From positions 6,603 to 70,602 of the forward strand of contig CAWGEI010000005.1 in assembly GCA_963821585.1 (NCBI GenBank): a stretch of 64,000 bases of DNA, given 5' to 3'. The notes beneath the pieces are model-generated. The model ran no database searches, had not been told where the DNA came from, and saw nothing but the letters and a program-made list of their open reading frames with translations. Positions 7,744 to 52,169 of this stretch are shown one piece after another. A program made the translations under genes and the position numbers. This DNA is from an uncultured Acidobacteriota bacterium (GTDB lineage: Bacteria > Acidobacteriota > Thermoanaerobaculia > Gp7-AA8). Every line of letters begins with the position of its first letter. Position 1 is the stretch's first letter.

Positions 7744-7836
7744 TGGAGTGCGGCGACGACTAGTCGCCGCTTTTCAATCTTTGCACGCTGAGCGCTCGAA
7801 GATAGGAAAGCGGCGACTCGCCGTCGCCGCACTCCA
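7744..7836. repeat. Long hairpin between convergent genes (30-nt arms, about 33-nt spacer)
   Basis: TGGAGTGCGGCGACGACTAGTCGCCGCTTT pairs with AAAGCGGCGACTCGCCGTCGCCGCACTCCA (3 mismatches). Each arm is itself self-complementary (GCGGCGAC/GTCGCCGC). Confidence 0.85.
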
Positions 7837-7838
7837 TA

Positions 7839-8204
7839 TCAGAACGGGTACAGCGGCGTGTTCCGCACGATCCAGTAGCTGGTCAGGACGAAGAACGCCG
7901 CCCACGCGAACCAGGGTTGCATGAGGAAGCGGGGCTGGCGACCTCGGAACAGGCTGGGGAGCGCGCACAGGGTCACGGCCAGCAGCAGGAAGAGCATCGG
8001 ATTGAGGCGGAAGGCCTCTTCGACGCGGCCGTGCAGCAGATGATGGAGCGCGCGCGTGGTGCCGCAGCCGGGGCATTCCAAGCCCGTCATCAGCCGGAAG
8101 GGGCATTGGGGGTAGAAGGCGTACGCCGTCGGCGGGAAGGTGAAGAGCACCCACCCACCGACGGCAGCCACGGCCGCGCTAACCGCGATTCGCCTGAGCT
8201 GCAC
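7839..8204 (-). CDS. DUF2752 family membrane protein
   Basis: 121 aa. CPFRLMTGLECPGCGTTRALHHLLHGRVEEAFRLNP is the DUF2752 signature. The gene overlaps the upstream gene by 26 nt. Confidence 0.85.
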   Translation of the reverse strand: MQLRRIAVSAAVAAVGGWVLFTFPPTAYAFYPQCPFRLMTGLECPGCGTTRALHHLLHGRVEEAFRLNPMLFLLLAVTLCALPSLFRGRQPRFLMQPWFAWAAFFVLTSYWIVRNTPLYPF

Positions 8205-8595
8205 TGATTGCCTGCATCATGTTGGCGCCGAAGACGATTCCCCAGATGATCGTGGCGACCAAGCCAACGCCAACGCCGATGAGCAGGAACATCTTCGCCT
8301 TCTGCGACGCTTCCTGCGCGCCGGCGATGTCGCCCTGCGCGAGCTTGGAATTGACCTGCGCGGAGAAGATGATCGCCACGATGCCGAGCGGGAGGCAGCA
8401 GCAGAGCGTGACCACGATCGACTGCCACAGGTAGTTCGGGATGGTCGCGGCGCCGACCGGCGGCGGCGCACCGAAGTTCGACGGCGGCGGGGGAGGCGTA
8501 TACGACGACGGAGCCCCGGCGCTCAGGGAGCGTCCGCAGTTCACGCAGACCGAGGCGTTATCGAGGTTGGACGTACCGCAATTCGGACAGTTCAA
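8179..8595 (-). CDS. Zinc-ribbon + Pro-rich linker + CD225/dispanin-family membrane protein
   Basis: CPNCGTSNLDNASVCVNCG, then PNYLWQSIVVTLCCCLPLGIVAIIFSAQVNSKLAQGDIAGAQEASQKAK. The likely start is TTG at 8595, 6 nt after AAGGAGG. The ORF track extends it to 8694. Confidence 0.85.
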   Translation of the reverse strand: MNCPNCGTSNLDNASVCVNCGRSLSAGAPSSYTPPPPPSNFGAPPPVGAATIPNYLWQSIVVTLCCCLPLGIVAIIFSAQVNSKLAQGDIAGAQEASQKAKMFLLIGVGVGLVATIIWGIVFGANMMQAISAAQANRG

Positions 8596-8606
8596 ACCAT
8601 TCCTCC

Positions 8607-8942
8607 TTATTTCGACGTGGCGATCGAGTATCCGATGAACGCCGCGTACGCGAGACCGATCAGAGCACCGGCACCGAAGGCGATCCAGCACCACATCTTT
8701 GCCTTCTCGGACGCTTCCTGGGCGCCCCCGACGTCACCGGCGTGCAGCTTCGAGTTTACCTGCGCGGCATAGATGATCGCCACGACTCCGAGGGGCATGC
8801 AGCAGCAGAACGCCGTCAGCACTGCCTGCACGAGGTAGTTGTTGATCTGCGGCAGAGGCGGAAAGCGGCGGATGCGCTCGTTGCAGTTCGTGCAGACGGT
8901 GGCGTTGTCGGCGCGGGCCACGCCGCAGCTCGTGCAGAACAT
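8607..8942 (-). CDS. Zinc-ribbon + CD225/dispanin-family membrane protein (paralog)
   Basis: 111 aa: MFCTSCGVARADNATVCTNCN...NNYLVQAVLTAFCCCMPLGVVAIIYAAQVNSKLHAGDVGGAQEASEKAK. Confidence 0.88.
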   Translation of the reverse strand: MFCTSCGVARADNATVCTNCNERIRRFPPLPQINNYLVQAVLTAFCCCMPLGVVAIIYAAQVNSKLHAGDVGGAQEASEKAKMWCWIAFGAGALIGLAYAAFIGYSIATSK

Positions 8943-9529
8943 TACTGTTGCACTCCTTCCGGATACTGCACGAAGGTCCCCGTCGAGAAGACGATGTCGT
9001 TGTCGAAGTCGGTCGTCTTCGTAAACGGCGTGTACTCCTGCAGCGAGTCGTGCTCGAACGTCTTGTCCGCGCCGGCGCTGCCGATCGCATAGGTCTCACA
9101 TGCGCCCGCCGGCCAGCACTCGTAGCGGAACTGTGTCTCCCAGCCGTCGAGCGTGGGGACGGACTTGACGTATTTCGGCACGAGCGCCGAGGAGAGGTCG
9201 CTCACCGACGAGACTTCGGGGTAGTGGTTCTGATCGGTCGAGTAGGCTTCCACCGCCGTCGCGATCGTTCGCATGTCCGCCATCGAACGCTTCTGCTTCG
9301 ACCGGTTGAGCGCCGTCAGGAAGTTCGGGATGGCGATGGCGGCCAGGATGCCAAGGACCGCGACGAGCACCAGTCCTCCGACGATGACGCCGATGATGAT
9401 GCCCGCGCTCTTCGAGCCCTCGCCGCGGGCCACGCGCTGCGAGCCGTTGCTGGGATTGCCGCAACGCGGACACGCCGCGTAGGAAACGTCGGTGACCTGA
9501 TTGCCGCACCAGGCGCAAAACGCCATCAC
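8942..9529 (-). CDS. Zinc-ribbon + TM + type II secretion GspG-like pseudopilin ectodomain; no prepilin cleavage motif
   Basis: 195 aa. CAWCGNQV...CPRCG, then a TM helix ending AAIAIPNFLTALNRSKQKRSMADMRTIATAVEAYSTD...LDGWETQFRY...YAIGSAGADKTFEHD. A G/FTLIE class-III signal is absent. Confidence 0.85.
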   Translation of the reverse strand: MMAFCAWCGNQVTDVSYAACPRCGNPSNGSQRVARGEGSKSAGIIIGVIVGGLVLVAVLGILAAIAIPNFLTALNRSKQKRSMADMRTIATAVEAYSTDQNHYPEVSSVSDLSSALVPKYVKSVPTLDGWETQFRYECWPAGACETYAIGSAGADKTFEHDSLQEYTPFTKTTDFDNDIVFSTGTFVQYPEGVQQ

Positions 9530-9565
9530 AAGCTCCAGTCGTACCGGGATTGGATGGCGGATTGT

Positions 9566-9648
9566 AACGTAGGGCGTGGCTTCAGCCCGCCTCTCTGGTC
9601 GAAACCCCCGCCCACGAGGGGAGGCGGGCTGAAGCCGCGCCCTACGTT
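9566..9648. repeat. Family-1 inverted-doublet (REPIN-like) element, copy 2
   Basis: AACGTAGGGCGTGGCTTCAGCCCGCC ... GGCGGGCTGAAGCCGCGCCCTACGTT with a 31-nt loop. Confidence 0.9.
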
Positions 9649-13863: not shown

Positions 13864-13929
13864 ATTCACCACAGAGAGCACAGAGATCACGGAGAGCTCT
13901 CTGTGGTCTCTGTGCCCTCTGTGGTGAAT
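13864..13929. repeat. 66-bp near-perfect palindrome between sufB and sufC (arms built from 9-nt CACAGAGNN sub-repeats)
   Basis: ATTCACCACAGAGAGCACAGAGATCACGGAGAG | CTCTCTGTGGTCTCTGTGCCCTCTGTGGTGAAT. The 33-nt arms have 3 mismatches and no spacer. Confidence 0.9.
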
Positions 13930-15910: not shown

Positions 15911-16098
15911 CTGCCGCCCGCTACGCAGGCTGGACATCAACGCTCCCTCGCGTCCCCCGGCTGAAGCCGGGGTCTATTCTCTCAAGCCGCCTACGGCGGC
16001 TGGAACCCGAGCCTGCGTAGCAGGCACCAGAAAATAGACCCCGGCTTCAGCCGGGGAGACGGCGGCGCGATGAGATCAGCCCGCGTAGCGGGCGGCAG
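15911..16098. repeat. Family-2 nested composite palindrome, copy B
   Basis: Same module order as copy A. The central hairpins here are GCCGCCTACGGCGGC and GCCTGCGTAGCAGGC. Confidence 0.88.
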
Positions 16099-16140: not shown

Positions 16141-16671
16141 ATGAAAAACAGACTGATGTTCCCGTTGGTATTTGTCGCGGCGTGGGGGGTGGCGTGCAGT
16201 GGCGACGGAGCCCGGCGCGGCGCACAGCAGAACAACTACGAAACCGTTCAGGAAGGCTCGGCCGCGGGCGTGACGTCGACGATTCACGGGCCGGGCGAGG
16301 TGCTTCCGCCGGTCACGGGGACGAACGCGGATACGACCTCAGCCTTCACGATCGACCCGAACACGGCCGCCACGACAGTAGCGGTCGCACCACCCATGCC
16401 GGAGCCAATGCCGGTCACGGCGACAACGCCGGCTCGTTATCCGATTCCTCAGACTTCCGCCGTGCCGGTCCGGCAACCGCCTCCGGAGCGCGCACCCGAA
16501 CCCGCGCCTGCACCGCCTACGGAGACCGCGCCGCCTACCGAGACGGCGCCTCCCACGGAGACCGCACCCCCGACAAAGACGGACACGGTCGCGCAGCCAG
16601 GCGAGCAGGAGCAGGCAGAGCCGCAAGCGGAAGAGCCGCCTCCGACGACGACGGACACAAGGGGACAATAG
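16141..16671 (+). CDS. Secreted (possibly lipidated) Pro/Thr/Ala-rich protein
   Basis: 176 aa. Signal peptide MKNRLMFPLVFVAAWGVAC, then a low-complexity tail with APPTET repeats. The stop TAG falls in the first unit of the downstream hairpin. Confidence 0.7.
   Translation: MKNRLMFPLVFVAAWGVACSGDGARRGAQQNNYETVQEGSAAGVTSTIHGPGEVLPPVTGTNADTTSAFTIDPNTAATTVAVAPPMPEPMPVTATTPARYPIPQTSAVPVRQPPPERAPEPAPAPPTETAPPTETAPPTETAPPTKTDTVAQPGEQEQAEPQAEEPPPTTTDTRGQ
16510..16581 (+). repeat. In-frame 18-bp tandem repeat x4 (APPTET/APPTKT)
   Basis: gcaccgcctacggagacc / gcgccgcctaccgagacg / gcgcctcccacggagacc / gcacccccgacaaagacg. Confidence 0.85.
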
Positions 16672-16768
16672 GACGGATAGGACGAATAGGACCTATAGGA
16701 CAAGCAAGAGTCCACCCACCCGTTTCTCCCTATCCGTCCTATAGGTCCTATCCGTCCTATCGTCCTAT
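16668..16768. repeat. Hairpin with arms built from 9-nt ATAGGACNN sub-repeats
   Basis: ATAGGACGGATAGGACGAATAGGACCTATAGGAC ... CTATCCGTCCTATAGGTCCTATCCGTCCTATCGTCCTAT. Confidence 0.88.
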
Positions 16769-16780
16769 ACTGCGCGCCCT

Positions 16781-17660
<880 letters not shown>

Positions 17661-39709: not shown

Positions 39710-39726
39710 GGGGGCGGATTATAGGA

Positions 39727-39807
39727 GTGCTGAGTGCTGGGTGCTGAGTGCTGGGTGCTGAGTGCTGGGTCACGCCTGCCGTTCTCTCAGCACCCAGCAC
39801 TCAGCAC
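39727..39807. repeat. Hairpin/tandem repeat built from a 7-nt (14-nt) GTGCTGA/GTGCTGG unit
   Basis: (GTGCTGAGTGCTGG)x3 GT ... CTCAGCACCCAGCACTCAGCAC, followed by TTTT. Confidence 0.88.
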
Positions 39808-39809
39808 TT

Positions 39810-40303: not shown

Positions 40304-40522
40304 TCAGCGCGCGGCGGAACCCAGCAACGAGTTCAGATCCCGCAGGAACGACTCCAGCTCGATGCGATACCCCTCCGCGACCTCCGCGAGCGTCTCATCG
40401 TTGGCGCGGCTGCAGCCGTTGCAGCCGCCGAGGTGATACGCCGCGAAGACCCAGCGCGCTTTCGGGTGCTTCTCCAGCGCCTCGGAAACGATGGTCGTGG
40501 GCGTAAACATGCGGCCGAACAT
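40304..40522 (-). CDS. DUF1858 / hybrid-cluster-associated redox disulfide domain protein
   Basis: 72 aa: TIVSEALEKHPKARWVFAAYHLGGCNGCSRANDETLAEVAEGY. Confidence 0.75.
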   Translation of the reverse strand: MFGRMFTPTTIVSEALEKHPKARWVFAAYHLGGCNGCSRANDETLAEVAEGYRIELESFLRDLNSLLGSAAR

Positions 40523-40530
40523 TCTAGATC

Positions 40531-40618
40531 AGAGCGCGGAGCGCAGAGGGCAGAGCGCAGAAGGCCACCGCCCCACCACCGAGTTCTTCTGCCCTCTGCG
40601 CTCTGCCCTCTGCGCTCT
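40531..40618. repeat. Hairpin with arms built from 7-nt AGAGCGC/AGAGGGC sub-repeats; fills the divergent intergenic region
   Basis: AGAGCGCGGAGCGCAGAGGGCAGAGCGCAGAAGG ... TTCTTCTGCCCTCTGCGCTCTGCCCTCTGCGCTCT. Confidence 0.88.
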
Positions 40619-40621
40619 ACA

Positions 40622-40876: not shown

Positions 40877-40878
40877 CG

Positions 40879-41295
40879 ATGCCCTACCTCACCGACGACC
40901 CGATCGATCCCCGCGCGCTCGTCGAGCGCGTCATGCGCCGTTCCGACGGCGCGTACGTCCTCTTCGAAGGCGTCGTGCGCAACCACCACGAAGGCCGGGC
41001 CGTCGAGTCGATCTTCTACGACGCCTACCGTCCCATGGCCGAGAAGGAGATCGATACGATCGTGCGCGAGATCGCCGCTCGCTACCCCGACGTCGCCCTC
41101 GCCATCCTCCACCGCCTCGGCCACCTCATCGTCGGCGACTCCTCGATCGCGATCGTCGCGTCGTCGCCGCACCGCGCCGAGGCGTTCGAGGCCTGCCGGA
41201 TGATGATCGACCGCATCAAAGAGACCGTCCCCATCTGGAAGAAAGAGCGCGGCCCGAATGGCGAGGAGTGGGTCGGATGGCAGGGCCGATGCTGA
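40879..41295 (+). CDS. moaE: Molybdopterin synthase catalytic subunit
   Basis: 138 aa: GAYVLFEGVVRNHHEGRAV...IVASSPHRAEAFEACRMMIDRIKETVPIWKKE. Confidence 0.9.
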   Translation: MPYLTDDPIDPRALVERVMRRSDGAYVLFEGVVRNHHEGRAVESIFYDAYRPMAEKEIDTIVREIAARYPDVALAILHRLGHLIVGDSSIAIVASSPHRAEAFEACRMMIDRIKETVPIWKKERGPNGEEWVGWQGRC

Positions 41296-41924
41296 GCGAC
41301 GAAGTCCCAGCCCTGCCCGCGGCGAGCGCCATCGTCCTCCGCGAGCCATTCGAGATCCTGATGATGCGCCGCCACGCCGGCGCGTCGTTCATGCCCAACG
41401 CCTGGGTCTTTCCCGGCGGCATCGCCGAGGAGCTCGATCACGAGCTCGGCGGACTGAAAGTCACCGCCGTGCGCGAGACCTTCGAAGAGACCGGCGTCTG
41501 GCTCGCCGCGCCGCTCGAAGACCCGGAGCACAAACGCCGGCGCCTCCTCGCCGGCAGCACATCCATCCGGCACCTGCTGGCCGAGGCGCCGTTCGATCCC
41601 GGGACCCTCATCCTCACCTCCCGCTGGATCACGCCCATCGGCGTCCCGAAACGCTTCGACACGTACTTCTACCTGGCCAGGGCCCCCCGCGACACGATCG
41701 CGACCGCCGAGGACCACGAGTCCGTCGACGTCACCTGGATCCATCCCGAAGCAGCGCTCGCGAAACACGCCGCCCGCGAGATGCAGATGGTCTTTCCCAC
41801 CCTGCGCAACCTCGAGGCGCTGTGCGGCTTCGACAGCATCGACGCATTGATCGAGTCGCGCCGCGGCATCACCGTCGAGCCGATCATCCCCGTGCTCGTG
41901 GATGGCAAACCAACGCTGAAGTGA
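41268..41924 (+). CDS. NUDIX hydrolase
   Basis: 218 aa. Nudix box GGIAEELDHELGGLKVTAVRETFEETGV. The start is uncertain; several ATG codons lie within the moaE overlap. Confidence 0.85.
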   Translation: MGRMAGPMLSDEVPALPAASAIVLREPFEILMMRRHAGASFMPNAWVFPGGIAEELDHELGGLKVTAVRETFEETGVWLAAPLEDPEHKRRRLLAGSTSIRHLLAEAPFDPGTLILTSRWITPIGVPKRFDTYFYLARAPRDTIATAEDHESVDVTWIHPEAALAKHAAREMQMVFPTLRNLEALCGFDSIDALIESRRGITVEPIIPVLVDGKPTLK

Positions 41925-41926
41925 CC

Positions 41927-42676
41927 ATGGACATCCGCTCCATCACCGCCCCGAACCCCGGCCCGTTCACCCTCGACGGCACGCGCACCTACCTCCTCGG
42001 CGAGACGGCGGTCCTCGACCCCGGTCCCGCGATCGGCTCGCACATCGATGCGATTCACGCCGCGATGCCGCGTCTCGAGACCATCCTCATCACCCACCGC
42101 CACGGCGATCACGCGCCCGCCGCGGTGCCCCTGAAACAGCGCACCGGCGCGCGGATCATCGCGCCGCGCAACGTCCTCGATAGCGGATTGGACAAGGTCG
42201 ACCAGCGCGTCGAAGGCGGAGAAGTCCTGTCCATCGGCGGCGTCGAGGTCGAAGTGATCGCCACCCCCGGCCACACGAACGAGCACGTGTGCTATCTGAC
42301 GTCCGAGGGCGACCTCTTCACCGGCGACACCATCCTCGGCGCCGGCACCACCGCCATCTTCCCTCCCGACGGCCACATGGGCGACTACCTCCGCTCCCTG
42401 CAGATCCTCCGCGAGCGCAACCCGAAACGGATCCACCCCGCCCACGGTCCCACCCGCGACGACGCCGTCGCGCTCATCGACGAGTACATCACCCACCGTC
42501 TGGCCCGCGAGCGCCAGATCCTCGCCGCAATCGCCGCGGGCGCGCAGACGCTGCAGGACCTGCGCAAGCGCGTCTATCCGGTGCTCAACCCTCAGCTCCA
42601 CGGCGCCGCGGAGATCCAGCTGACCGCGCACCTGATCAAGCTGCGCGAAGAGGGCCGCACCACCCTGTCATTCTGA
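41927..42676 (+). CDS. MBL-fold metallo-hydrolase
   Basis: 249 aa: ILITHRHGDHAPAA...TPGHTNEHVC. The stop TGA lies inside the family-3 repeat. Confidence 0.88.
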   Translation: MDIRSITAPNPGPFTLDGTRTYLLGETAVLDPGPAIGSHIDAIHAAMPRLETILITHRHGDHAPAAVPLKQRTGARIIAPRNVLDSGLDKVDQRVEGGEVLSIGGVEVEVIATPGHTNEHVCYLTSEGDLFTGDTILGAGTTAIFPPDGHMGDYLRSLQILRERNPKRIHPAHGPTRDDAVALIDEYITHRLARERQILAAIAAGAQTLQDLRKRVYPVLNPQLHGAAEIQLTAHLIKLREEGRTTLSF

Positions 42677-42766
42677 GCCGCGTAGACGGCGAAGAATCCC
42701 CCGCCGAAGCATACGACGCGCTCAACGCACGGGATCCTTCGCCGTCTACGCGGCTCAGGATGACAG
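42665..42766. repeat. Family-3 hairpin element (GTCATCCTGAGC...GCGTAGAC...GAAGGATCC type), copy 1
   Basis: CTGTCATTCTGAGCCGCGTAGACGGCGAAGAATCC ... GGATCCTTCGCCGTCTACGCGGCTCAGGATGACAG. Confidence 0.9.
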
Positions 42767-42767
42767 G

Positions 42768-43223
42768 TCAGCGCGGGATTACCGTCCTGATGAAGCTCTT
42801 GTTCACGAAGTACGTGTCGTCCTCGGCGTCGATGCGCACGAACGACTCCGTCTGATCGTTCAGCACGTCCGAGATGCGCGAGGACTCGCGGGGGCGGTCG
42901 CCGATGGGGATCATTCCTTCGATGCGCGTGCCGTCCGCGAGCTCGAGGATGGTCAGCTTCTCGATCATCGTCGAGTCGAGGTCCACGATGTCCGGGAGCT
43001 TCTCGTAGCGTACCCAGAGGACCTGGTCGCGATTGAGCATCTTCGGCACGCCGGCGCAGACCATAGGGAAGAAGCGCCGCCTCCCGTTGAGATAGTCGGC
43101 GACGGACTCCGGGCCGTCGCGCCGCTCCGCGTACGGCGCCAGATAGAGAAAGTGCTCCTCGGGCTCGGCGCGTGCGAGAGCGACGATCACCGCGACCTCG
43201 ATCATCGGGACCTGGTAGGCCAT
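42768..43223 (-). CDS. Hypothetical protein
   Basis: 151 aa with non-repetitive, protein-like composition. No family recognised. Confidence 0.6.
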   Translation of the reverse strand: MAYQVPMIEVAVIVALARAEPEEHFLYLAPYAERRDGPESVADYLNGRRRFFPMVCAGVPKMLNRDQVLWVRYEKLPDIVDLDSTMIEKLTILELADGTRIEGMIPIGDRPRESSRISDVLNDQTESFVRIDAEDDTYFVNKSFIRTVIPR

Positions 43224-43249
43224 TCGTGCGCAATAGAATACGACGCGAC

Positions 43250-44173
43250 ATGAAACACAAAGACTTCATCGAAGTAACCGACTACACCGCGGACGAGGTC
43301 CTGGAGCTCTTCCGCCTCGCCGCGGACATGAAGAAAGACAAGGACCAGTACCGCACCGCGCTGGCGGGGCAGACGCTGGCGATGATCTTCGAGAAATCGT
43401 CGACGCGCACGCGGGTCTCGTTCGAGGTGGGGATGTACCAGCTCGGCGGCCACGCGCTGTTCCTCTCCTCGCGCGACATCCAGCTCGGCCGCGGCGAGCC
43501 GATCACCGACACCGCGCGCGTGCTCTCGCGCTACGTCGACGGCATCATGGCCCGCACTTTCGCGCACAAGACCGTCACCGACCTCGCCGAGTACGCGACC
43601 GTACCCGTGATCAACGGACTCACGGACCTCTCGCACCCCTGCCAGTCGATGACCGACTACTTCACCGCGTGGGAGAGGTTCGGCGGCAATCTCAAGGGCC
43701 GCAAGATGGCGTACGTCGGCGACGGCAACAACATGGCCCACTCGCTCCTCGTCGCCGCGCCGAAGGTGGGCATGGACATCGCTGTAGCCACTCCCGCGGA
43801 CTACGCCCCGAACGCCGAGGTCGTGGCGGAGGCGCAGGCAGCCGCGCGCGAGGCGGGAACGAAAGTGATCCTCACGAACTCGATGGACGAAGCCATCAAA
43901 GACGCCGACATCGTCGAGACCGACGTGTGGGCGTCGATGGGACAGGAAGCCGAGGCCGAGAAGCGCAACCGCGACTTCCACGGCTGGATGGTCGACGCCC
44001 GCCACATGGCCTCGGCGAAGAAGGACGCGATCTTCATGCACTGCCTCCCCGCCCACCGCGGCGAGGAAGTCGCGGCCGAAGTCATCGACAGCCCGGCATC
44101 CGTAATCTACGACGAAGCGGAGAATCGCCTGCACGTGCAGAAGGCGATCATGTATACCTTGATGAAGAAGTAG
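43250..44173 (+). CDS. argF: Ornithine carbamoyltransferase
   Basis: MKHKDFIEVTDYT...FEKSSTRTRVSFE...HPCQ...HCLPAHRGEE. Start is at ATG 43250; the ORF track starts at 43172. Confidence 0.93.
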   Translation: MKHKDFIEVTDYTADEVLELFRLAADMKKDKDQYRTALAGQTLAMIFEKSSTRTRVSFEVGMYQLGGHALFLSSRDIQLGRGEPITDTARVLSRYVDGIMARTFAHKTVTDLAEYATVPVINGLTDLSHPCQSMTDYFTAWERFGGNLKGRKMAYVGDGNNMAHSLLVAAPKVGMDIAVATPADYAPNAEVVAEAQAAAREAGTKVILTNSMDEAIKDADIVETDVWASMGQEAEAEKRNRDFHGWMVDARHMASAKKDAIFMHCLPAHRGEEVAAEVIDSPASVIYDEAENRLHVQKAIMYTLMKK

Positions 44174-44174
44174 G

Positions 44175-44262
44175 CAGTCGACAGTTGGCAGTTGACAGGA
44201 GAGCCCGCACACCCCCGGCGTTCTCCCTCTCCTGCCAACTGCCAACTGCAAACTGTCAACTG
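44175..44262. repeat. Hairpin with arms built from 7-nt CAGTTGG/CAGTTGA sub-repeats
   Basis: CAGTCGACAGTTGGCAGTTGACAGGAGAG ... CTCTCCTGCCAACTGCCAACTGCAAACTGTCAACTG. Confidence 0.88.
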
Positions 44263-44264
44263 AA

Positions 44265-45269
44265 ATGGCAGACGCTCACACACGCCACGGCCGCGGCCTC
44301 GTCGTCGTCATCTTTCTGGCCGTCGTCTTCTTCGCACTCCTCGCCCTGATCATCCTCAGATCGGGCGGAGGAAAGAGCGAGGAAGCGGCGGCGGTCGAGA
44401 CGTTGACGGTGCTGCCGGCGCGCGTCCGCATGCGCACCGAGCCGCAGGCGCGCGCGCCCGTCGTGGCGACGCCGACGAGCGGCGACCGCCTCACGCTGCT
44501 CGAGGACCGCGGCGCGTGGGTCCGCGTGCAGACCGCGGACGGCCTGGTCGGCTGGGCCGAGCGCTCCGCGCTGGAGAAGACGGCCGAGGTGCAACGGCGG
44601 ATGCAGCGGTACGAGGCGATCCGGAAACTGCCGCCGCTGCAGGGCGAAGCCACCGATCGCGTCCAGCTCTACGCCGGCCCGGGCATCTTCTATCCGCTGA
44701 TGGGAGAGATCGCGGCGGGCACGCAGGTCGTCGTCTACACGCGCGATCACGACTTCTACGTCGTCGAGCACGGCAAGGCCATCGCGTACGCGAACGTCGA
44801 CGCGATCGACCTCAGCGCGTCCGGCACGCGCCAGCTCGACGTCCGGACCGCGAGCCTGCCGCAGACCGGGACCGCCGCGACCGAAACGCAGCCGCCCGTC
44901 GCCGACACCGCCGTCGCGGAGCCTCCGCCGATCACCGAAACGCAGCCCGAACCGGAGCCGGTGGAGCGCTCCACGGGCGTCTACAGCGCCGTGCCTCCCG
45001 GCGGAACGCAACCCGAGGAGCTGGATCGCGTCGTGCCGCGCTATCCGCCCGCCGCGCGACGCGCGGGCGTCGCCGGCGCCGTCGTGGTCCGCGGGATCGT
45101 CCGCCGCGACGGTACGATCGACAACGTCGAGATCCTCAAGGACCTCCCCCACGGCCTCGGCGACGAAGCGCGCCGCGCGGTGAGCCGCTGGCGCTTCCGC
45201 CCGGCAACGTTCCGCGGCGAGCCGATCGACGTGTATTACACGGTGACGGTGAATTTCAAACTGCAGTAG
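44265..45269 (+). CDS. TM + tandem SH3-like domains + Pro-rich linker + TonB C-terminal domain protein
   Basis: 334 aa. [46 protein letters not shown] is SH3_3-like. [18 protein letters not shown]...[12 protein letters not shown]...[24 protein letters not shown] is TonB_C-like. Confidence 0.85.
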
Positions 45270-45287
45270 CGCGTTCTGATCGCGCCC

Positions 45288-46226
45288 ATGTCCCGCTTCA
45301 CCTTCCCCCATGCTCCCGGCGATCTCATCGGTGCACACCTCTCGACGCAGGGAGGGCTGCACACGATCTTCGAGCGCGCGTCCGCCATCGGCGCAACCGC
45401 CGCGGCGCTGTTCGCGAAGAACGGAAACCAGTGGCTAGGGAAGACGCTCACGGACGAGCACTGTGCGACGTTCGCGTCGCAGCGCAACGTGGCGCCGCTG
45501 CTCACGCACGCGTCGTATCTGATCAACCTCGCGGGAACAAACGAGGACTTCCACCGCAAGTCGATCGCCGCGCTGATCGACGAGCTCGATCGCGCCGAAC
45601 GCCTCGGCATTCACGCCGTCGTCCTCCACCCCGGTGCGCACCTGGGCGCGGGCTCCGCTGCAGGGGTAGACCGCATCGCCCGCTCGCTGGACCAGGTCCA
45701 TGCGGCAATCCCGCACCATCGCGTCGTCACGCTGCTGGAGACGGGCGCGGGACAGGGCACGTGCGTCGGCTGCACGTTCGAGGAGCTGGGCCGCATGATC
45801 CGGCTCGTCGACGATCCCAAGCGCGTCGGCATCTGCTTCGACACCTGTCACGTGTTCGCCGCCGGCTACGAGATGCGCACGCGCGACGCGTACGAGCGAA
45901 CCATGGACGAGCTGATCCGCCACGTGGGCCTGGACAACGTCGGCGCGTTCCACCTCAACGACTCGAAGAAACTCCTCGGCTCCCGCGTCGACCGCCACAC
46001 CCACATCGGCGAAGGCGAGCTCGGACTGGAGCCGTTCCGCTTCCTGCTCAACGACCCGCGGTTCGCGCGCATCCCGAAGGTGATCGAGACGCCGAAGGAC
46101 GTGGAGACGATTTCGGACCAGCGCAATTTGCGCGTGTTGCGGTCGCTGATCGGGGAGTCTCAAAGTCGGAAAGTCTCAAAGTCTCAAAGAAGAAGACGAA
46201 CGGCTGCTGTCGCAGCATCTCTTTGA
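45288..46226 (+). CDS. nfo: Endonuclease IV (deoxyribonuclease IV)
   Basis: 312 aa: IGAHLS...HASYLINLA...VLHPGAH...LETGAGQG...CFDTCH...HLNDSK. The last about 25 codons ([24 protein letters not shown]) are encoded by the downstream hairpin repeat. Confidence 0.9.
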
Positions 46227-46245
46227 GACTTTGCGACTTTGAGAC
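46155..46245. repeat. Hairpin with arms built from 8-nt GTCTCAAA sub-repeats
   Basis: GAGTCTCAAAGTCGGAAAGTCTCAAAGTCTCAAAGAAG ... CTCTTTGAGACTTTGCGACTTTGAGAC. The loop holds its own mini-hairpin, GCTGC-tgtc-GCAGC. Confidence 0.88.
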
Positions 46246-46291
46246 CCCGTATTGCGAGGGTCGTGACGGTTCAGCTAGAGTGCGGCGCCAA

Positions 46292-47540
<1,249 letters not shown>

Positions 47541-47542
<2 letters not shown>

Positions 47543-47712
47543 GCTGGAATCAGCAAAATGATGCTGGAGCCAGCTCCACGATGCTGTGGCCAGCTCAAAT
47601 GTGCTGGAAACAGCAGGAAAATGCTGGCGCCAGCAAAATAATGCTGCGGCCAACAAAATAATGCTGCGGCCAGCTCCAGAAATGCCGGACCAGCACGAAA
47701 ATGCTGGAATTA
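47541..47712. repeat. Tandem array of about 9 x 20-bp units, each with a GCTGGNNCCAGC dyad
   Basis: Units start at 47541, 47561, 47581, 47601, 47621, 47641, 47661, 47682 and 47701. The consensus is about ATGCTGGNGCCAGCNAAAAT. Confidence 0.88.
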
Positions 47713-47770
47713 ACTCGTTCGACGATTTTTCCAGCTCGCCAGAGCTCCGCGCAGCATTTATGGAGTGCCG

Positions 47771-47857
47771 GTGTCATCCTGAGTCGCGTAGACGCGGAGG
47801 ACCTTCCCCCCTGCCACGTGGAAGGTCCTTCGCTGTCTACGCAGCTCAGGATGACAC
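47771..47857. repeat. Family-3 hairpin element, copy 2
   Basis: GTGTCATCCTGAGTCGCGTAGACGCGGAGGACCTTCC ... GGAAGGTCCTTCGCTGTCTACGCAGCTCAGGATGACAC. Confidence 0.9.
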
Positions 47858-47912
47858 CTTGGATGACACCTGGGCACACGCCTCTGAAACCCCGCGTTGT
47901 GGCAGCCGTAGG

Positions 47913-48068
47913 CCGTACCGGCGAGCCGCCGGTGGACCGGCCGGCCAGCGGCCGGCGCTCCACATGTGCCCTCACCCCGCTCGTCGAGAAGGCGAACGAC
48001 GCACGAGCAGACGCAGGAAGGCGCGCCGGCTGCCAGCCGGCCGGTCCACCGGCGGCTCGCCGGTGCGG
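47913..48068. repeat. Long GC-rich inverted repeat (about 46-nt arms, about 64-nt spacer)
   Basis: CCGTACCGGCGAGCCGCCGGTGGACCGGCCGGCCAGCGGCCGGCGC ... GCGCCGGCTGCCAGCCGGCCGGTCCACCGGCGGCTCGCCGGTGCGG. Confidence 0.85.
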
Positions 48069-48090
48069 GGCCTGTGGTGAATGCAAGACC

Positions 48091-48978
48091 TCACGCGCTG
48101 GCGGCGCGGAATTCGAGGAACCAGGGCTCGCGGCGGCCGAATTTGGTCGCGAGGGCTACGCCGACGCCGAAGATGCTGGACAGGGACCAGAGGATGGTTC
48201 CGACGACGGGGATGAAGCGCAACGAACCGAGAAGCAACACGCCGATCACGACCATGGCCAGGTCGCCGCGGAGCCACTTCCGCTGCTCGAGCTGACCGCG
48301 CGAGCGCGCGCCGGCGATCAGGGTGCCCACCGCGTGGAAGACGGCGATCATGCCGTAGATCTTGGTCAGCAGAGCGAACACGGCCAGCGCGGCGAGCAGC
48401 GGGATGCCGACGACGTACGGCACGAGGTAGCTGAACGCGATCGCGGTGAGGACGAAGCTGGTCAGCGCGACGAGGCCGAGGACGAAGCAGTGCAGCGCGC
48501 TGGTGCGCACTTCGACGGACGACAGGCGGATCTCACGGCCGCTCATGAGCGTCACCACGATCGCCGCGATCAGCCACACCAGCACCAGCGAGGCGATGAT
48601 GGCATTCTTCGTCAGCGCGCCCGCGGCCCCTTCCAGCGACGCCAGCGGGTAGATCCGGCCACCCACGCGCCCTTCCGCACCCATCAGCGTCGCGCCCGCA
48701 TGGATCAGGTTTCCCTGCACGCGTCCGTTCCCCGCGAACGTCACCTTCCCGCCGATGACCAGCAGATCGCCAGCGATCACTTCCCGCAGCAGGAGCGTCC
48801 CGCCGTAGACCTGCACCGTGCCGAGGACCGGCTCGTCGATGGTCGCGTTCTCGTCGACGAAGTGCGTGTCCGAGGTCGTCGTCCGCGACTGCCCCTTCGC
48901 CCCGGTCGGCAGAACGACCGCGAACAGCGCCACCAGCGCCGCAACGACGGTCAGCGGAACGACGAGCCGTCTAAACAT
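48091..48978 (-). CDS. Membrane protein with an N-terminal bactofilin-like (polymer-forming beta-helix) repeat region and 5-6 TM helices
   Basis: 295 aa: GTVQVYGGTLLLREVIAGDLLVIGGKVTFAGNGRVQGNLIHAGATLMGAEGRVGGRIY, then a hydrophobic C-terminal half. It is the third gene of the ECF sigma operon. Confidence 0.65.
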   Translation of the reverse strand: MFRRLVVPLTVVAALVALFAVVLPTGAKGQSRTTTSDTHFVDENATIDEPVLGTVQVYGGTLLLREVIAGDLLVIGGKVTFAGNGRVQGNLIHAGATLMGAEGRVGGRIYPLASLEGAAGALTKNAIIASLVLVWLIAAIVVTLMSGREIRLSSVEVRTSALHCFVLGLVALTSFVLTAIAFSYLVPYVVGIPLLAALAVFALLTKIYGMIAVFHAVGTLIAGARSRGQLEQRKWLRGDLAMVVIGVLLLGSLRFIPVVGTILWSLSSIFGVGVALATKFGRREPWFLEFRAASA

Positions 48979-49387
48979 CGACTCCCTTCGGCGCGCGGCG
49001 CAGCAGGAAGTACAGGATGGTATTGATGGCCACGAACAGCACCGCGACGAGCGGTCCGCCGATCGCGCGCCCGGTCAGCTGCAAGAACGTGAGCAGCGCT
49101 TCGAGCGACGGCATCGACGACGTGACGACCGTGATCGGAGAGATCCCTGCATACGCCGAGAGCACGATCGCCAGCGTCAGCGCCGACACCAGGCCCGCGC
49201 CGACCAGAGGCCACGTGCGGTGCGACGAGCCTTCCCAGGACGCCAGCGGCAGCGCGTCCACACGGATGGGACGATGCTCGATCTCGAGCGGCAGCGCGAA
49301 GTCCTCCTCGAGCGCGCGGCACTCCGCGCACGACTCGAGGTGAGCCGCGTTCGCCTCCGGATCCTGCAGGTATTCCTCACATGTCAT
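48971..49387 (-). CDS. Anti-sigma factor (zf-HC2-like N-terminus, membrane anchored)
   Basis: 138 aa: MTCEEYLQDPEANAAHLESCAECRALEE, then TM helices. It overlaps the sigma gene by 4 nt. Confidence 0.75.
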   Translation of the reverse strand: MTCEEYLQDPEANAAHLESCAECRALEEDFALPLEIEHRPIRVDALPLASWEGSSHRTWPLVGAGLVSALTLAIVLSAYAGISPITVVTSSMPSLEALLTFLQLTGRAIGGPLVAVLFVAINTILYFLLRRAPKGVDV

Positions 49388-49971
49388 AAAGGTTCCACGA
49401 AAGATCCGAGCGATTCCTTCAGCAAATTCCGCGCTCGGAACAGTTTGTTCTTGACCGTGCCGAGGGGGAGCTTCTTCATCGAAGCGATCTCCTCGTACGA
49501 GAGCTCCGCGAAGTGGCGGAGCTGAATGAGCTCGCGATAATCGGACGGCAACTGCTCGACGGCCTTGTCGATCGCGGCGCTGAGCTGCTTGTTCTTGAGC
49601 GCGCGGTACGGAGAAATGCCGTCGTCGGCAAACTCGCGCTCTTTCCCGCTCGGCTCTTCCTCGGTCGGCCGCGCCAGCGGCACCTCGGAGATCGACTTCT
49701 TCCGCAGCGCATCGATGGCGCTGTTCTGCGCGATCCGGAACAGCCAGGTCGAGAACTGATACTTCGGATCGTAGCGATCGAGTGCGAGATAAACCTTCAC
49801 GAAAATTTCCTGCGCCAGATCGTGCGCGTCTTCGTAGCGATGCGTGATCCGGTACACGTAATTGACGAGCCGCTTCTCGTAGCGGCCCACCAGCGTCGTG
49901 AACAGGTCCCTTTCGCCGCCGAGGATCCGCTCCACGAGGGCGCGGTCATCGAGCTGAACACGTTCTGCCAT
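49384..49971 (-). CDS. ECF-type RNA polymerase sigma-70 family factor
   Basis: 195 aa with region 2 (DAHDLAQEIFVKVY...FSTWLFRIAQN) and region 4 (SYEEIASMKKLPLGTVKNKLFRAR). Confidence 0.92.
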   Translation of the reverse strand: MAERVQLDDRALVERILGGERDLFTTLVGRYEKRLVNYVYRITHRYEDAHDLAQEIFVKVYLALDRYDPKYQFSTWLFRIAQNSAIDALRKKSISEVPLARPTEEEPSGKEREFADDGISPYRALKNKQLSAAIDKAVEQLPSDYRELIQLRHFAELSYEEIASMKKLPLGTVKNKLFRARNLLKESLGSFVEPL

Positions 49972-50030
49972 TCGATTCTACGGGCGTCAGGACTGAAGGT
50001 TGCCCGAGGGCGATGATACCCTGCCGCGGG

Positions 50031-50753
50031 ATGATCGAAATCCAAGATCTCACAAAGAGATACGGCGATTTCACGGCCGTGGATGGCCTCAGCCTTACCG
50101 CCGCGGCCGGTGAGATCTTCGGCTTCCTCGGACCGAACGGGGCCGGAAAGACCACCACCATCCGCATCGTGGCGGGCTTATCCCTGCCGTCCAGCGGCTC
50201 CGTGGTGGTCAACGGAGTCGACGTCATCCACGACGCCGTGCGGGCAAAATCGATCATGGGCTACGTGCCCGACCGGCCGTACCTCTACGAGAAGCTCACC
50301 GGCCGCGAGCTGCTGCACTTCGTCGCCGACCTCTACCGGCGGCCATGGAGCGAGTGCGAGCCGCGCGCGGTCGAGATGCTCCGCTACTTCGACCTCGGCG
50401 ACTGGATCGACGCCCGCATCGAGAACCTGTCGCACGGGATGAAGCAGAAGCTCGTGCTCGTCTCGGCGCTGGTCCACGACCCCACGGTGCTGGTGATCGA
50501 TGAGCCGATGGTCGGCCTGGACGCGCTCGCGCAGAAACAGGTGAAGGTGCTGTTCCGCAACCTCGCGAATGCGGGAAAGACCGTGTTCCTGACGACGCAC
50601 ACGCTGTCGGTGGCGGAAGCGGTGTGCGACCGCATCGCCATCATCAACCGCGGCCGGATCGTCGCGAGCGGCACGACCGCGGAGCTGAAGAAGGATGCGG
50701 CGCTGGAGGACGCGTTCCTGGCGCTGACGTATGACACTTCGACGCCTGGATGA
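50031..50753 (+). CDS. ABC transporter ATP-binding protein (ABC-2 type)
   Basis: MIEIQDLTKRYGDF...GPNGAGKTTT...LSHGMKQKL...LVIDEP. The ORF track starts at 50013. Confidence 0.92.
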   Translation: MIEIQDLTKRYGDFTAVDGLSLTAAAGEIFGFLGPNGAGKTTTIRIVAGLSLPSSGSVVVNGVDVIHDAVRAKSIMGYVPDRPYLYEKLTGRELLHFVADLYRRPWSECEPRAVEMLRYFDLGDWIDARIENLSHGMKQKLVLVSALVHDPTVLVIDEPMVGLDALAQKQVKVLFRNLANAGKTVFLTTHTLSVAEAVCDRIAIINRGRIVASGTTAELKKDAALEDAFLALTYDTSTPG

Positions 50754-51567
50754 GCTCCGCGCGCACCGCAGGGACGACGCGCTCCGCCGCGGCATCAATC
50801 CGCGGGATGTGGATCTCCTGCTCTCCGATCTTCTCGACCGGTCGCTCGCGTATCTGTACGCGCACGGCGAGCTGGAAGTGGACTCCACGCAGCTCGACGC
50901 ACGGCTCGCGCGGCGTTACGCGGGCGAGCCGCTGCAGTACATCCGCGGGCACACGGAGTTCTACTCGCGCGACTTCCTGGTCGACGCGCGCGCGCTGATC
51001 CCGCGCCCGGAGACGGAGCTGCTCGTGGAGACGGCGATCGAGCGCGCGCCTGCGCACGGACACGTGGTCGACATCGGCACGGGGACCGGGTGCATCGCGA
51101 TCTCCATCGAGCGCGAGCGCTCGGACCTGCAGGTGCTGAGCGTCGATCGATCGCTCGACGCACTCGCGCTCGCGGCGACGAACAAGGCGCGGCTGGAGTC
51201 CAACGTGATGCTCGCGGCGTCGGACGTGCTCGCGAGCGTCCGCGGCACGTTCGACATCATCGTGTCGAATCCGCCGTACGTGCCGCTCGGGGAGTACCGG
51301 CAGCTCGCGGTCGAGGTGCGCATTCACGAGCCGCGCATGGCGCTGACGCCCGGGCCGGCCGGCACGGAGATCATCGAGCGGATTCTCGACGAGGCGCACG
51401 CGCGCCTGGAGCCGCGCGGCTGCCTGATCCTGGAAGTGGGATACGGGCAGGAGGAAGCGATCCGCACGCTGGCCGCGGCGAAGCGATACGACGTCGAGGA
51501 GTTCCTTCCTGACCTCGCCGGGATTCCGCGCGTCGTCGTATTATCCGCGCATGCCGAGCCACGATAA
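50731..51567 (+). CDS. prmC: Peptide chain release factor N(5)-glutamine methyltransferase
   Basis: 278 aa: VDIGTGTGCIAIS...IIVSNPPYV. Confidence 0.9.
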   Translation: MTLRRLDELRAHRRDDALRRGINPRDVDLLLSDLLDRSLAYLYAHGELEVDSTQLDARLARRYAGEPLQYIRGHTEFYSRDFLVDARALIPRPETELLVETAIERAPAHGHVVDIGTGTGCIAISIERERSDLQVLSVDRSLDALALAATNKARLESNVMLAASDVLASVRGTFDIIVSNPPYVPLGEYRQLAVEVRIHEPRMALTPGPAGTEIIERILDEAHARLEPRGCLILEVGYGQEEAIRTLAAAKRYDVEEFLPDLAGIPRVVVLSAHAEPR

Positions 51568-51904
51568 GTGCCTCTTCTGCCGCATCGCCGCGGGCGAGAT
51601 CCCGGCGAAGAAGGTCCACGAAGACGCCGACGTCGTCGCCTTCCACGACATCAACCCCCAGGCCCCGACGCACGTGCTGGTGATCCCGCGCAAGCACATC
51701 CCGATGCTGAACGACCTCACGGACGCGGACGCCGCGACGATCGGCACGACGCTCGTACGGGCATCGGAGATCGCGCGCGACCTGCGGCTGCACGATGACG
51801 GCTACCGCCTGGTGGTCAACAACGGCGAAGGCGCGGGCCAGACGGTGTTCCACATCCACGTCCACATCCTCGGCGGCCGCAACTTCGGCTGGCCACCCGG
51901 CTGA
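51551..51904 (+). CDS. HIT family (histidine triad) protein
   Basis: 117 aa: CLFCRIAAGEIPAKKVHED...GQTVFHIHVHILGG. Confidence 0.93.
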   Translation: MPSHDKCLFCRIAAGEIPAKKVHEDADVVAFHDINPQAPTHVLVIPRKHIPMLNDLTDADAATIGTTLVRASEIARDLRLHDDGYRLVVNNGEGAGQTVFHIHVHILGGRNFGWPPG

Positions 51905-51910
51905 GGCCGG

Positions 51911-51943
51911 GATTGAGGATGAAGGATTGAGGATTGAGGATTA
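51911..51943. repeat. 7-nt tandem repeat GATTGAG/GATGAAG x about 5
   Basis: gattgag gatgaag gattgag gattgag gatta. A weak complementary segment, CCTCAGATTCATCTCC, lies at about 52124-52139. Confidence 0.75.
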
Positions 51944-51981
51944 GAACCCGTAGCCCAAGACGGTGGCGCTCGGAGGGAAGT

Positions 51982-52107
51982 CCCCTCTCCCCGCGCGTCG
52001 AGCGTGGGGAGAGGGTTAGGGTGAGGGGTCGCTCCTCGCTCGAGGCACGTCCCCTCACCCGGCGCTTCGCGCCACCCTCTCCCCACGCTCACGCGCGGGG
52101 AGAGGGG
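51982..52107. repeat. Inverted pair of CCCCTCTCCCC...GGGGAGAGGG-T-GAGGGTGAGGGG type hairpin repeats
   Basis: CCCCTCTCCCCGCGCGTCGAGCGTGGGGAGAGGGTTAGGGTGAGGGG (51982-52028) and CCCCTCACCC...ACCCTCTCCCCACGCTCACGCGCGGGGAGAGGGG (52051-52107). Confidence 0.8.
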
Positions 52108-52169
52108 ACGGGGGCCGAGAGACCTCAGATTCATCTCCTGCCCCCCGCGCCCTGCCCCCCGCCCCCTGA

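Follow-up and report, generated by a model that had tools for sequence, protein, structure and literature searches.

Intergenic hairpins with arms of 7-9-nt tandem repeats in a Thermoanaerobaculia contig: possible foldback-type palindromic repeat elements

Why should neighbouring gene gaps of one bacterial contig hold very long hairpins that are built in the same way from different sequences? The question is raised by a 64,000-nt stretch (66% G+C; hereafter the window) of contig CAWGEI010000005.1, whose closest relatives are metagenome-assembled Thermoanaerobaculia (Acidobacteriota) and in which an initial annotation had described eight intergenic hairpins with arms of short tandem sub-repeats. 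The sequences stand at the positions reported there, and the loci do differ in sequence while sharing one construction principle. The hairpins are best explained, with a probability of about 0.5, as small non-coding foldback-type palindromic repeat elements that resemble repetitive extragenic palindromes (REPs) and MITEs (miniature transposable elements with inverted repeats) and whose arms consist of 7-9-nt tandem arrays.

Periodic hairpins are found in the window and not in its shuffled versions. A detector that accepts ungapped arms of 18 nt or longer, complementary to 80% or more, around a loop of no more than 80 nt, and only if both arms agree in their best period with a self-match of at least 0.66, found six of them (at 13864, 16663, 39726, 40531, 44175 and 46157) and none in any of 100 dinucleotide-preserving shuffles, a control that upholds the original observation. 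Being ungapped, the detector is conservative and misses, for example, the hairpins between sufB and sufC of two relatives (L520 and L524). Hairpins of detector size, periodic or not, number 21 in the window against a shuffle mean of 1.1. Tandem Repeats Finder (TRF) reports paired arrays of period 7, 8 or 9 on either side of a spacer at six loci, which an inverted-repeat finder pairs, and 12 of the 15 window arrays with a period of 7-9 and at least three copies are hairpin halves. The six hairpins have arms of 23-44 nt that are 86-100% complementary, spacers of 0-40 nt and 3-6 unit copies per arm, and their RNA folds reach -50 to -61 kcal/mol (z -7.3 to -10.7). All six lie in gene gaps between housekeeping genes and nearly fill them. 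The count of eight therefore stands for the six listed here, numbered by their order in the window; it does not stand for the loci at 7744 and 51910, which are described further below.

Hairpin 2, 13864..13929, no strand: zero loop, arms of ATTCACC + (CACAGAGNN)x3 and its complement, 9-nt unit; in the sufB-sufC intercistronic gap, both genes on the minus strand, with SufB and an ABC ATPase as flanking products; RNA fold -56.1 kcal/mol, z -10.7.
Hairpin 3, 16663..16768, no strand: 9-nt unit ATAGGACNN with an 18-nt super-period, loop of ~21-29 nt; between an unknown open reading frame (ORF) and glyQ, upstream of the latter; right end abutting a TATACT -10-like box 9 nt ahead of ATG; RNA fold -55.3 kcal/mol, z -7.3.
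Hairpin 4, 39726..39808, no strand: alternating GTGCTGA/GTGCTGG (7 nt, 14-nt super-period), left arm 44 nt and right arm 23 nt; upstream of polA (minus strand), whose TATAAT box it abuts; RNA fold -60.7 kcal/mol, z -7.3.
Hairpin 5, 40530..40618, no strand: 7-nt units AGAGCGC/AGAGGGC; exactly between the -10-like boxes ATTCTA and TACAAT of the divergent DUF1858 and ThiS/MoaD (thiS-like) genes; fold -58.6 kcal/mol (plus strand) and -68.1 kcal/mol (minus strand).
Hairpin 6, 44169..44262, no strand: 7-nt units CAGTTGG/CAGTTGA/CAGTCGA, inner stem CAGGAGAG..CTCTCCTG; spanning the gap from the OTCase stop codon (TAG, 44171-44173) to 2 nt short of the ATG (44265) of a TonB-like gene; RNA fold -50.2 kcal/mol, z -7.5.
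Hairpin 7, 46154..46248, no strand: 8-nt units AGTCTCAA/AGTCGGAA; between an nfo-like gene and icd; RNA fold -53.5 kcal/mol, z -8.0.

The evidence that carries the preferred reading comes from the same gaps in relatives. The comparison of orthologous gaps that had been proposed for these hairpins covered ~45 syntenic relative loci (given here by L numbers), of which at most 20 kb each was read, and gene order matches excellently between these loci and the window. Gaps were found empty, filled, resized or holding another family. Between the OTCase and TonB genes, stop and start codons adjoin (TAGATG) in L081, L083, L002 and L003 as against a 91-nt insert in the window, they are nearly adjacent in L001, L004-L006 and L082, and no intermediate between 0-nt (TAGATG) and ~90-nt gaps occurs among 15 relatives. 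Homologues of hairpin 6 with the same inner stem (CAGGAGA..TCTCCTG) occur in L084/L085 (186 nt, unit CAGTTGA), L086 (106 nt, CGGTTGG) and L087 (148 nt, CAGTCGG), compared with 94 nt in the window, and in each the change is present in every unit of both arms. The paired units read CAGTTGG/CCAACTG (the window and L084), CGGTTGG/CCAACCG (L086) and CAGTCGG/CCGACTG (L087), with arms that are 86-93% complementary. In one arm of the L084 homologue a 27-nt block is triplicated, and the L087 homologue carries a 50-nt duplication that takes in the first 12 nt of the gene.

Other gaps show the same range of states. Compared with L081 (ATTATAG/TTTCGCC), L001, L002 and L007, hairpin 4 is ~84 nt of cleanly inserted sequence. 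The gap between DUF1858 and ThiS measures 5-27 nt in L001 and L006, holds the hairpin 5 family in L081 and L086, and retains a one-armed relic in L084. Between nfo and icd, orthologues of the 8-nt family of hairpin 7 with unit variants are present in L001, L086, L082, L081 and L084; elsewhere this gap has no hairpin (L002), a GTCATCCTGAGC palindrome (L004) or a hairpin of the hairpin 2 family (L087). Hairpin 3 is shared with L523 (Rrf2 97% identical), in which the right arm is nearly identical, the left-arm units are reordered and half of the loop is different, and the gap upstream of glyQ is empty in L520, L524 and L525. The sufB-sufC gap is 90-97 nt long in all five genomes including the window; in L520, L522, L524 and L525 (92-95%) it holds a GTTGCTG/GTTCCTG 7-mer hairpin in place of the 9-mer hairpin (CACAGAG) of the window, which keeps a vestige of the former right arm (AGCAAC...AGGAAAcAAATG). 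Which family occupies the gap between the OMP gene and DUF1858 also depends on the relative. The gaps resemble slots: interchangeable palindromic elements, periodic or non-periodic, fill them, vanish from them and fill them again. Orthologous copies are not alike in copy number, unit order or block duplications, in agreement with the slippage that the initial annotation had suggested.

As the window and its relatives are metagenome assemblies throughout, the hairpins might be thought an artefact of sequencing or assembly. Homologous hairpins recur, however, at the same gaps with lineage-specific differences in independent NCBI, JGI, ENA and Logan assemblies, and a member of the hairpin 2 family is present in the record of a cultured Bacteroides finegoldii strain, which makes the chance of an artefact negligible.

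Are the hairpins copies of anything? The initial annotation had held that their arms are mutually unrelated and that they are not copies of one mobile element. The first part is true of the window except for a second, one-armed member of the hairpin 5 family at 52133-52168; the second part needs amending, in that some families occupy several loci per genome. In L086, hairpins of the GGTTGGC type lie at 6149, 8840, 9900 and 18072, and those at 8840 and 9900 have in common not only their arms but also the inner stem GGGAG(A/C)CC and the loop CCCGACCAC. Twelve detected hairpins of one family occupy almost every gene gap of a compact IMG/VR contig (L225) within 7.7 kb, and their loops have the core AAAGGC(A/C)AAAAC, which can point either way; a similar pattern is seen in L213 and L100, and L084 and L012 each carry one family at two loci. 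Several same-family copies per 20 kb are thus seen in L086, L225 and L213, and within each of these three the copies have shared loop cores.

The widest distribution is that of the hairpin 2 family. A pattern with 20 specified bases matches 61 IMG/VR viral-metagenome contigs with GC contents of 0.32-0.70, and 37 sites have a near-exact inverted end (CTCTGTGGTGAAT, at most two mismatches) within 260 nt. Many copies lie directly past a stop codon. In L104 and L112 the loop of a 9-mer GACGCAAAG hairpin encloses the copy, the copy in Bacteroides finegoldii (gap between a PPIase gene and rlmN) has an intrinsic-terminator hairpin inside its loop, and the copy in L087 sits at another locus (nfo-icd) than that of the window. 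Loops are unrelated among copies of this family. ATTCACC-(CACAGAGNN)n is the clearest case of true homology across taxa and is shared across phyla; a 13-nt non-repetitive end together with the 9-mers cannot arise independently.

Other indications of wide families were rejected. Raw IMG/VR counts for GTGCTGR x3 (60 loci) and CAGTTGV x3 (86 loci) compare with 20 and 31 for scrambled controls, and one scrambled control heptamer, GATGTCV, is itself a natural hairpin family. The query ATAGGACNN x3 gave 83 loci of which only 4 are hairpins; most are apparently coding 9-nt repeats, some in giant-virus bins, and judging from the unit these may be collagen-like. Sharing of heptamer units across phyla was likewise discarded as a sign of homology: there are only ~1200 heptamer classes, and the GTGCTGA arrays on Erwinia, Streptomyces and Legionella plasmids are plain one-armed direct repeats. 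As a separate observation, one-armed (GCTGAGT)n arrays adjoin an IS110-family transposase gene on an Erwinia plasmid (L527 601-644) and a tyrosine recombinase gene on a Legionella plasmid (L529 601-646), possibly by coincidence.

A foldback-type repeat element accounts for these data in the following manner. Each hairpin is a discrete insert of 65-190 nt that is flush with stop codons, start codons or -10-like boxes, at a gap that some relatives leave empty. After insertion the arrays alter in copy number and unit order, and substitutions reach all units of both arms with complementarity kept. Elements are also nested in one another's loops (L104, L112, the Bacteroides copy and, in the window, at the GGATTGA array of 51910 described below). 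Change in place would occur by replication slippage or unequal exchange within arrays, and one arm could be copied from the other by intra-palindrome template switching or gene conversion; slippage and copying between arms would explain both the periodic arms and the concerted, compensatory changes. New gaps would be reached by duplication, with structure or hairpins already present as the guide instead of specific end sequences. Such inserts may persist as they fold on themselves, keep their flanks adjacent and do little harm, and any role as a 3' stem-loop or processing site would be secondary.

Several findings weigh against such elements. Five of the six window families are met only once within the window, and six unrelated unit families per 64 kb are awkward for a sequence-specific transposase. 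All same-family paralogues lie within stretches of at most 20 kb, so that copying by local recombination is possible, and heptamer sharing across phyla, as said, is no evidence of homology. Target-site duplications were found neither at the filled/empty pairs for hairpins 4 and 6 nor in the 37 two-armed copies of the hairpin 2 family, whose flanks are inverted-complementary instead. No autonomous copy or transposase was found in an array search limited to the hairpin 2 family, in which intervening DNA was not examined for ORFs. In that search, inverted arrays lie within 4 kb of hairpin 2 family copies (61 contigs) at three downstream distances beyond 300 nt (614, 3044 and 3528 nt) and eight upstream ones (480-2706 nt); at the one such distant-array site that was inspected, L142, there is also a partner arm nearby.

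The architecture is widespread yet strongly enriched in this lineage. In 1.9 Mb of viral-metagenome loci there are 93 distinct periodic hairpins with 48 unit types and periods of 7 (57), 8 (25) and 9 (10). The same detector gives 94 periodic hairpins per Mb for the window and 86 per Mb for nine close relatives. The density is 20 per Mb in 31 Thermoanaerobaculia that are more distant and 12 per Mb in 80 unselected soil and sediment metagenome loci with sufB, and 835 kb from Firmicutes and other phyla hold none.

The sufB loci come from a SufB metagenome scan whose relatives have at most 82% identity and belong to many taxa, and they serve as a background sample rather than for orthology. Five of the eight periodic hairpins found in these 80 loci adjoin sufB, each with a different unit, where ~2 would be expected from a sampling that is biased to sufB-adjacent gaps; a preference of the hairpins for sufB flanks is only suggestive. 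The five are these.

L445, 5868-5953: hairpin adjoining sufB.
L448, 1888-2010: hairpin adjoining sufB.
L502, 1097-1183: hairpin adjoining sufB.
L504, 7435-7536: hairpin adjoining sufB.
L519, 7428-7551: hairpin adjoining sufB.

With ~90 hairpins per Mb in many families, and with gaps that are empty, filled, expanded, half-decayed or refilled, the clade is a comparative system in which rates of gain, loss and slippage can be measured, mobile, local and selected models can be compared, and an enzyme can be sought by gene-presence correlation.

The diversity of units bears on a second explanation, in which the hairpins are generated locally. A short seed in the gap, for example a terminator-like inverted repeat, would be lengthened by slippage in 7-9-nt steps, and the partner arm would be made complementary by strand switching or hairpin-templated synthesis, with breakage and repair of the palindrome remodelling it ever after; nearby copies of one family would reflect template switching or gene conversion between neighbouring hairpins and not transposition. 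Units differ at nearly every window locus, and arrays of period 7, 8 or 9 stand side by side here as they do in the 1.9 Mb of other contigs, as local generation would have it. It is also favoured by the missing target-site duplications, by arms that vary independently through slippage and block duplication, by strict Watson-Crick pairing without an excess of G·U, as expected from arm copying at the DNA level, by the spacing of same-family copies at no more than 20 kb, and by loops that bear no relation from one locus to the next and can enclose a terminator hairpin that was there before. The heptamer excess of bacteria has been ascribed to the footprint of the polymerase (Mrazek 2007, in the account given in PMC4692102). 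Local generation does not readily provide, however, for a 13-nt non-repetitive end that accompanies the 9-mers of the hairpin 2 family across contigs of such different G+C content, Bacteroides and an acidobacterium, for copies in L086, L225 and L213 that share loop cores besides arms, or for gaps that jump from 0 to ~90 nt. Units resemble their flanks no more than chance predicts: seeding by native flank (AGCACT for hairpin 4, TGGCAG for hairpin 6) was rejected, as chance should supply about one 6/7 match per site when all rotations and both strands within 15 nt are allowed. We regard local generation as a possible but clearly less probable account overall, which remains plausible for the heptamer families.

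A further reading is a process that does without sequence-specific ends. Mobilisation could be guided by structure and home to hairpin loops or gene-boundary gaps, or breaks at palindrome centres could be repaired in a telomere-like way, by templated reiterative addition of 7-9-nt units to both 3' ends of the break. If repeats were added to both ends, the outcome would be one unit in inverted arrays that meet at an arbitrary loop junction, with genome-specific variants and without target-site duplication. Loop-proximal units match the prevailing variant of the genome in L084 and L086. Together with nesting, replacement and absent target-site duplications, this is compatible with an end-independent process, to which none of these observations is specific, and we consider such a process improbable. 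A common loop motif, CCG(N)TTCTC, was also tried and set aside: 8 of 30 loops contain TT[CT]TC where random segments give 3.3 +/- 1.7, a weak excess that overlaps the inner stem.

Could the stems instead be kept for what they do? In this explanation, which the initial annotation had raised as selection for long stems of any sequence, the gap needs a long stem as a 3'-exonuclease barrier, an RNase III site, a U-tract-independent terminator, a cruciform or a protein-binding array; any sequence that supplies it is retained, and tandem repeats are the fastest route to it. The sufB-sufC gap, which holds unrelated hairpins of similar length in five genomes, fits, as does the nfo-icd gap; hairpins close behind stop codons, the sufB flanks of unrelated contigs, the compact contig L225 with a hairpin in nearly every gene gap and the compensatory change of both arms can be read in the same way, and heptamer repeats of Xanthomonas are mostly transcribed (PMC4692102). 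Yet the closest relatives lack hairpins 3, 4 and 6, which must therefore be dispensable, and ordinary REP-like palindromes fill the same gaps equally well. Hairpin 5 is probably in neither neighbouring mRNA, because it lies between divergent -10-like boxes.

Signals of function in RNA or transcription point the same way. There is no T-run after any hairpin, and a terminator scan of 39000-53000 picks up no hairpin; it overlaps them solely at a 5-bp mini-hairpin within the loop of hairpin 7. The arms contain no canonical -35/-10 pairs (TTGACA occurs inside the unit of hairpin 6 without a -10 partner), and a promoter role for them was rejected. Stem mismatches on the sense strand among close relatives are mostly transversions and show no excess of G·T over A·C (3 vs 7, small numbers), so that RNA-level selection through tolerance of G·U gives no signal. 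Rfam has no family for the hairpins, with only sub-threshold matches to miRNA precursors, and gave nothing in 12 contigs of the hairpin 2 family; the sole Rfam match at gathering score in the window is Acido-Lenti-1 at 29798-29845. Selection for a long stem as the primary cause is rather unlikely. Nor do the hairpins match integron attC sites: no GTTRRRY core was found in the arms, and the flanks are syntenic housekeeping genes (polA, the OTCase gene, icd, sufBC and glyQS).

Is there a described class to which the hairpins belong? The initial annotation knew of none, a statement that does not hold in full, as inverted pairs of heptamer arrays are known from Xanthomonas. Rehm et al. (2015, PLoS One) found 70-75 convergent inverted pairs of GGGAATC heptamer arrays per genome; these arrays are intergenic, have 2-26 and commonly ~4 units, lie near stop or start codons, can form stem-loops, are conserved in position and variable in length between species, and their function is not known (PMC4692102). 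The window hairpins are likewise convergent short arrays of the same unit in non-coding DNA that form stem-loops. Xanthomonas, however, has one G-rich unit per genome, read as a G-quadruplex, whereas the window combines at least six mutually unrelated units, of 7, 8 or 9 nt, none prone to G-quadruplexes; a G-rich GGGNATC-type unit or regular tracts of three or more G are absent from the units CACAGAGNN, ATAGGACNN, GTGCTGR, AGAGSGC, CAGTTGR and AGTCTCAA. Nearly all window arrays are in a hairpin arrangement, and insertion polymorphism, in-gap replacement, nesting and loop-sharing paralogues, all of which are seen here, do not form part of the Xanthomonas study.

Other heptamer arrays are more distant. 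The TAACTGA direct arrays of Beggiatoaceae, cyanobacteria and Bacteroidetes end a few nt from start codons, lack a Shine-Dalgarno sequence and have a patchy cross-phylum distribution that suggests transfer, and a translational role has been proposed for them (MacGregor 2015; PMC4679880). In contrast to the inverted pairs of the window, they repeat a single unit directly in one arm, one of 170 sets being inverted; the unit of hairpin 6 on the opposite strand (TCAACTG) is one base off TAACTGA. A parallel is reportedly also found in the short tandemly repeated repetitive (STRR) heptamers of cyanobacteria that Mazel and colleagues described in 1990. To our knowledge, the excess of intergenic heptamer repeats, and of 8-9-nt ones, has been known since 2007 and never explained, and the few detailed heptamer studies have each dealt with one unit in one genus. 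The excess of heptamers in bacteria goes back to Mrazek 2007, as cited in PMC4692102.

Among dispersed palindromes, the GTAG- and CGTC-tagged ones offer the REP comparison: they lie in gene gaps, are non-coding and multi-copy, show presence/absence polymorphism, are clustered or nested and often stand past stop codons (PMC3733652). In the present clade REP-like palindromes occupy the same gaps interchangeably with periodic hairpins. REPs, which are mobilised by REP-associated tyrosine transposases (RAYTs), have family-specific, non-repetitive arms and a tetranucleotide tag within 20-40 nt, whereas the window hairpins measure 66-106 nt, have no tag and turn over their arms by slippage. MITEs have defined terminal inverted repeats and target-site duplications, whereas the window hairpins, all with inverted arms, are without duplication. 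Foldback transposons (FB of Drosophila) have long inverted arms of short tandem repeats with variable copy number, loops that are heterogeneous or absent, and high instability. They differ in being eukaryotic and of kilobase scale, some copies having transposase genes, and nothing indicates that they and the window hairpins share an ancestor. Intrinsic terminators and stabilising stem-loops share the positions downstream of stops and between cistrons and the G+C-rich stem; their stems measure 5-15 bp, whereas those of the window have 23-44 bp and no T/U tract, one stands between divergent promoters, and some are lacking in the closest relatives. What is new here is the presence of many unrelated units with three period lengths in one genome, in arrays that are almost all hairpins, and the documentation in relatives of gain, loss, in-gap replacement, nesting and concerted evolution, with one family across phyla.

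The remaining elements of the window that belong to the subject are listed here, among them the two loci of the initial annotation that are not periodic hairpins.

Element 1, 7744..7836, no strand: non-periodic palindrome of the GGAGTGCGGCGAC family between convergent genes, outside the periodic class.
Element 8, 51910..51943, + strand: one-armed GGATTGA array of 4.7 copies directly past the stop codon of the HIT gene.
Palindrome, 51980..52108, no strand: non-periodic, ~130 nt, at the place expected for the right arm of element 8.
Second copy of the hairpin 5 family, 52133..52168, + strand: one-armed TCTCCTG CCCCCCG CGCCCTG CCCCCCG, corresponding to right arm and inner stem (TRF).

Element 1 had been taken for a hairpin with tandem-repeat arms. 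Its arms are non-periodic (periodicity 0.33-0.42), and it is a palindrome of a multi-copy family, the GGAGTGCGGYGRC palindromes, with further members in L006, L082 and L084. It folds with -70 kcal/mol, and each arm contains a small inverted repeat, GCGGCGAC..GTCGCCGC; four palindrome types occupy its gap across four genomes (the window, L520, L522 and L524). Element 8 had also been counted as a hairpin but has one arm and no fold of its own (z +0.3). In L081 (89% identical) a two-armed GGATTGA hairpin, GGATTGAGGATGAAGGATTGAGGATT-ccgcccct-CCTCAATCCTCAATCC, follows the HIT gene, and element 8 most likely represents a hairpin of which only the left arm survives. Folded as DNA, 51900-52145 reaches -87.5 kcal/mol (z -9.2). 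The array at 52133-52168 is identical in 24 of 25 positions to the right arm of the DUF1858-ThiS hairpin of L081 and in 26 of 34 to hairpin 5 of the window.

Hairpins of this kind also matter for annotation, as they create spurious ORFs, extend real ones and can break assemblies. The nfo-like ORF (45288-46226) traverses the left arm and loop of hairpin 7 and has its stop codon within the right arm. About 24 of its C-terminal codons are encoded by the hairpin, and they vary among relatives (window 45288-46226; L086 11027-11971).

The hairpins sit, moreover, exactly at promoter and translational-coupling sites. TAnAAT-like boxes (TATAAT, TAGAAT, TACAAT, TATACT and TAGAGT) stand 7-10 nt ahead of starts that have no Shine-Dalgarno sequence.

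TAnAAT-like boxes, 39710-39725, 40508-40640, 16765-16783 and 46270-46294: at the same sites in L001, L006, L081-L087, L520 and L524.

With boxes so close to the starts and no Shine-Dalgarno sequence, mRNAs of this clade may be leaderless or have very short leaders. The start of the thiS-like gene is probably GTG 40630 rather than ATG 40622.

Non-periodic palindromes form further families in the window. A GTAG-tagged REP-like family, AACGTAGGGCGTGGCTTCAGCCCGCC, has five copies (1736-1800, 9566-9648, 20534-20598, 24888-24942 and 33518-33579) and is also found in the same gaps of L087, L520 and L524. The family GTCATCCTGAGCCGCGTAGACGGCGAAG has copies at 42655-42776 and 47770-47858; in relatives it replaces the periodic hairpin between nfo and icd (L004) and fills the gap of element 1 (L522). 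A third family, CCCCGGCTGAAGCCGGGGTCTATT, has copies at 29744-29846, 15955-16056, 5044-5211 and 57688-57788. The Acido-Lenti-1 'sRNA' family looks here like a dispersed repeat, because one of these CCCCGGCTGAAGCCGGGGTCTATT copies reaches its gathering score.

Several tandem structures differ from the hairpins or combine with them. Between the stop codon of icd and ORF 47701-49026 (no Pfam match), a 20-nt tandem array of 6.6 copies with a 60-nt super-period extends over 47531-47674; its unit, a mini-palindrome GCTGGnnCCAGC followed by AAAATAAT, is iteron- or operator-like and dissimilar to the hairpins. Within the same ORF, 47913-48068 is a very G+C-rich inverted repeat with 49-nt arms that are 90% complementary and a 58-nt spacer. 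In L008 (1038-1911), four tandem units of ~266 nt each contain a hairpin, GGCAAGCGCGAAGCGCGCG, with a loop of 32-33 nt, and L112 has similar ~150-nt tandem arrays, built from composite nested hairpins, at 6393-6712 and 3671-3998. Directly upstream of hairpin 3, the unannotated ORF 16141-16671 includes an 18-nt tandem repeat, CCGCCTACGGAGACCGCG, in 2.9 copies (16513-16565).

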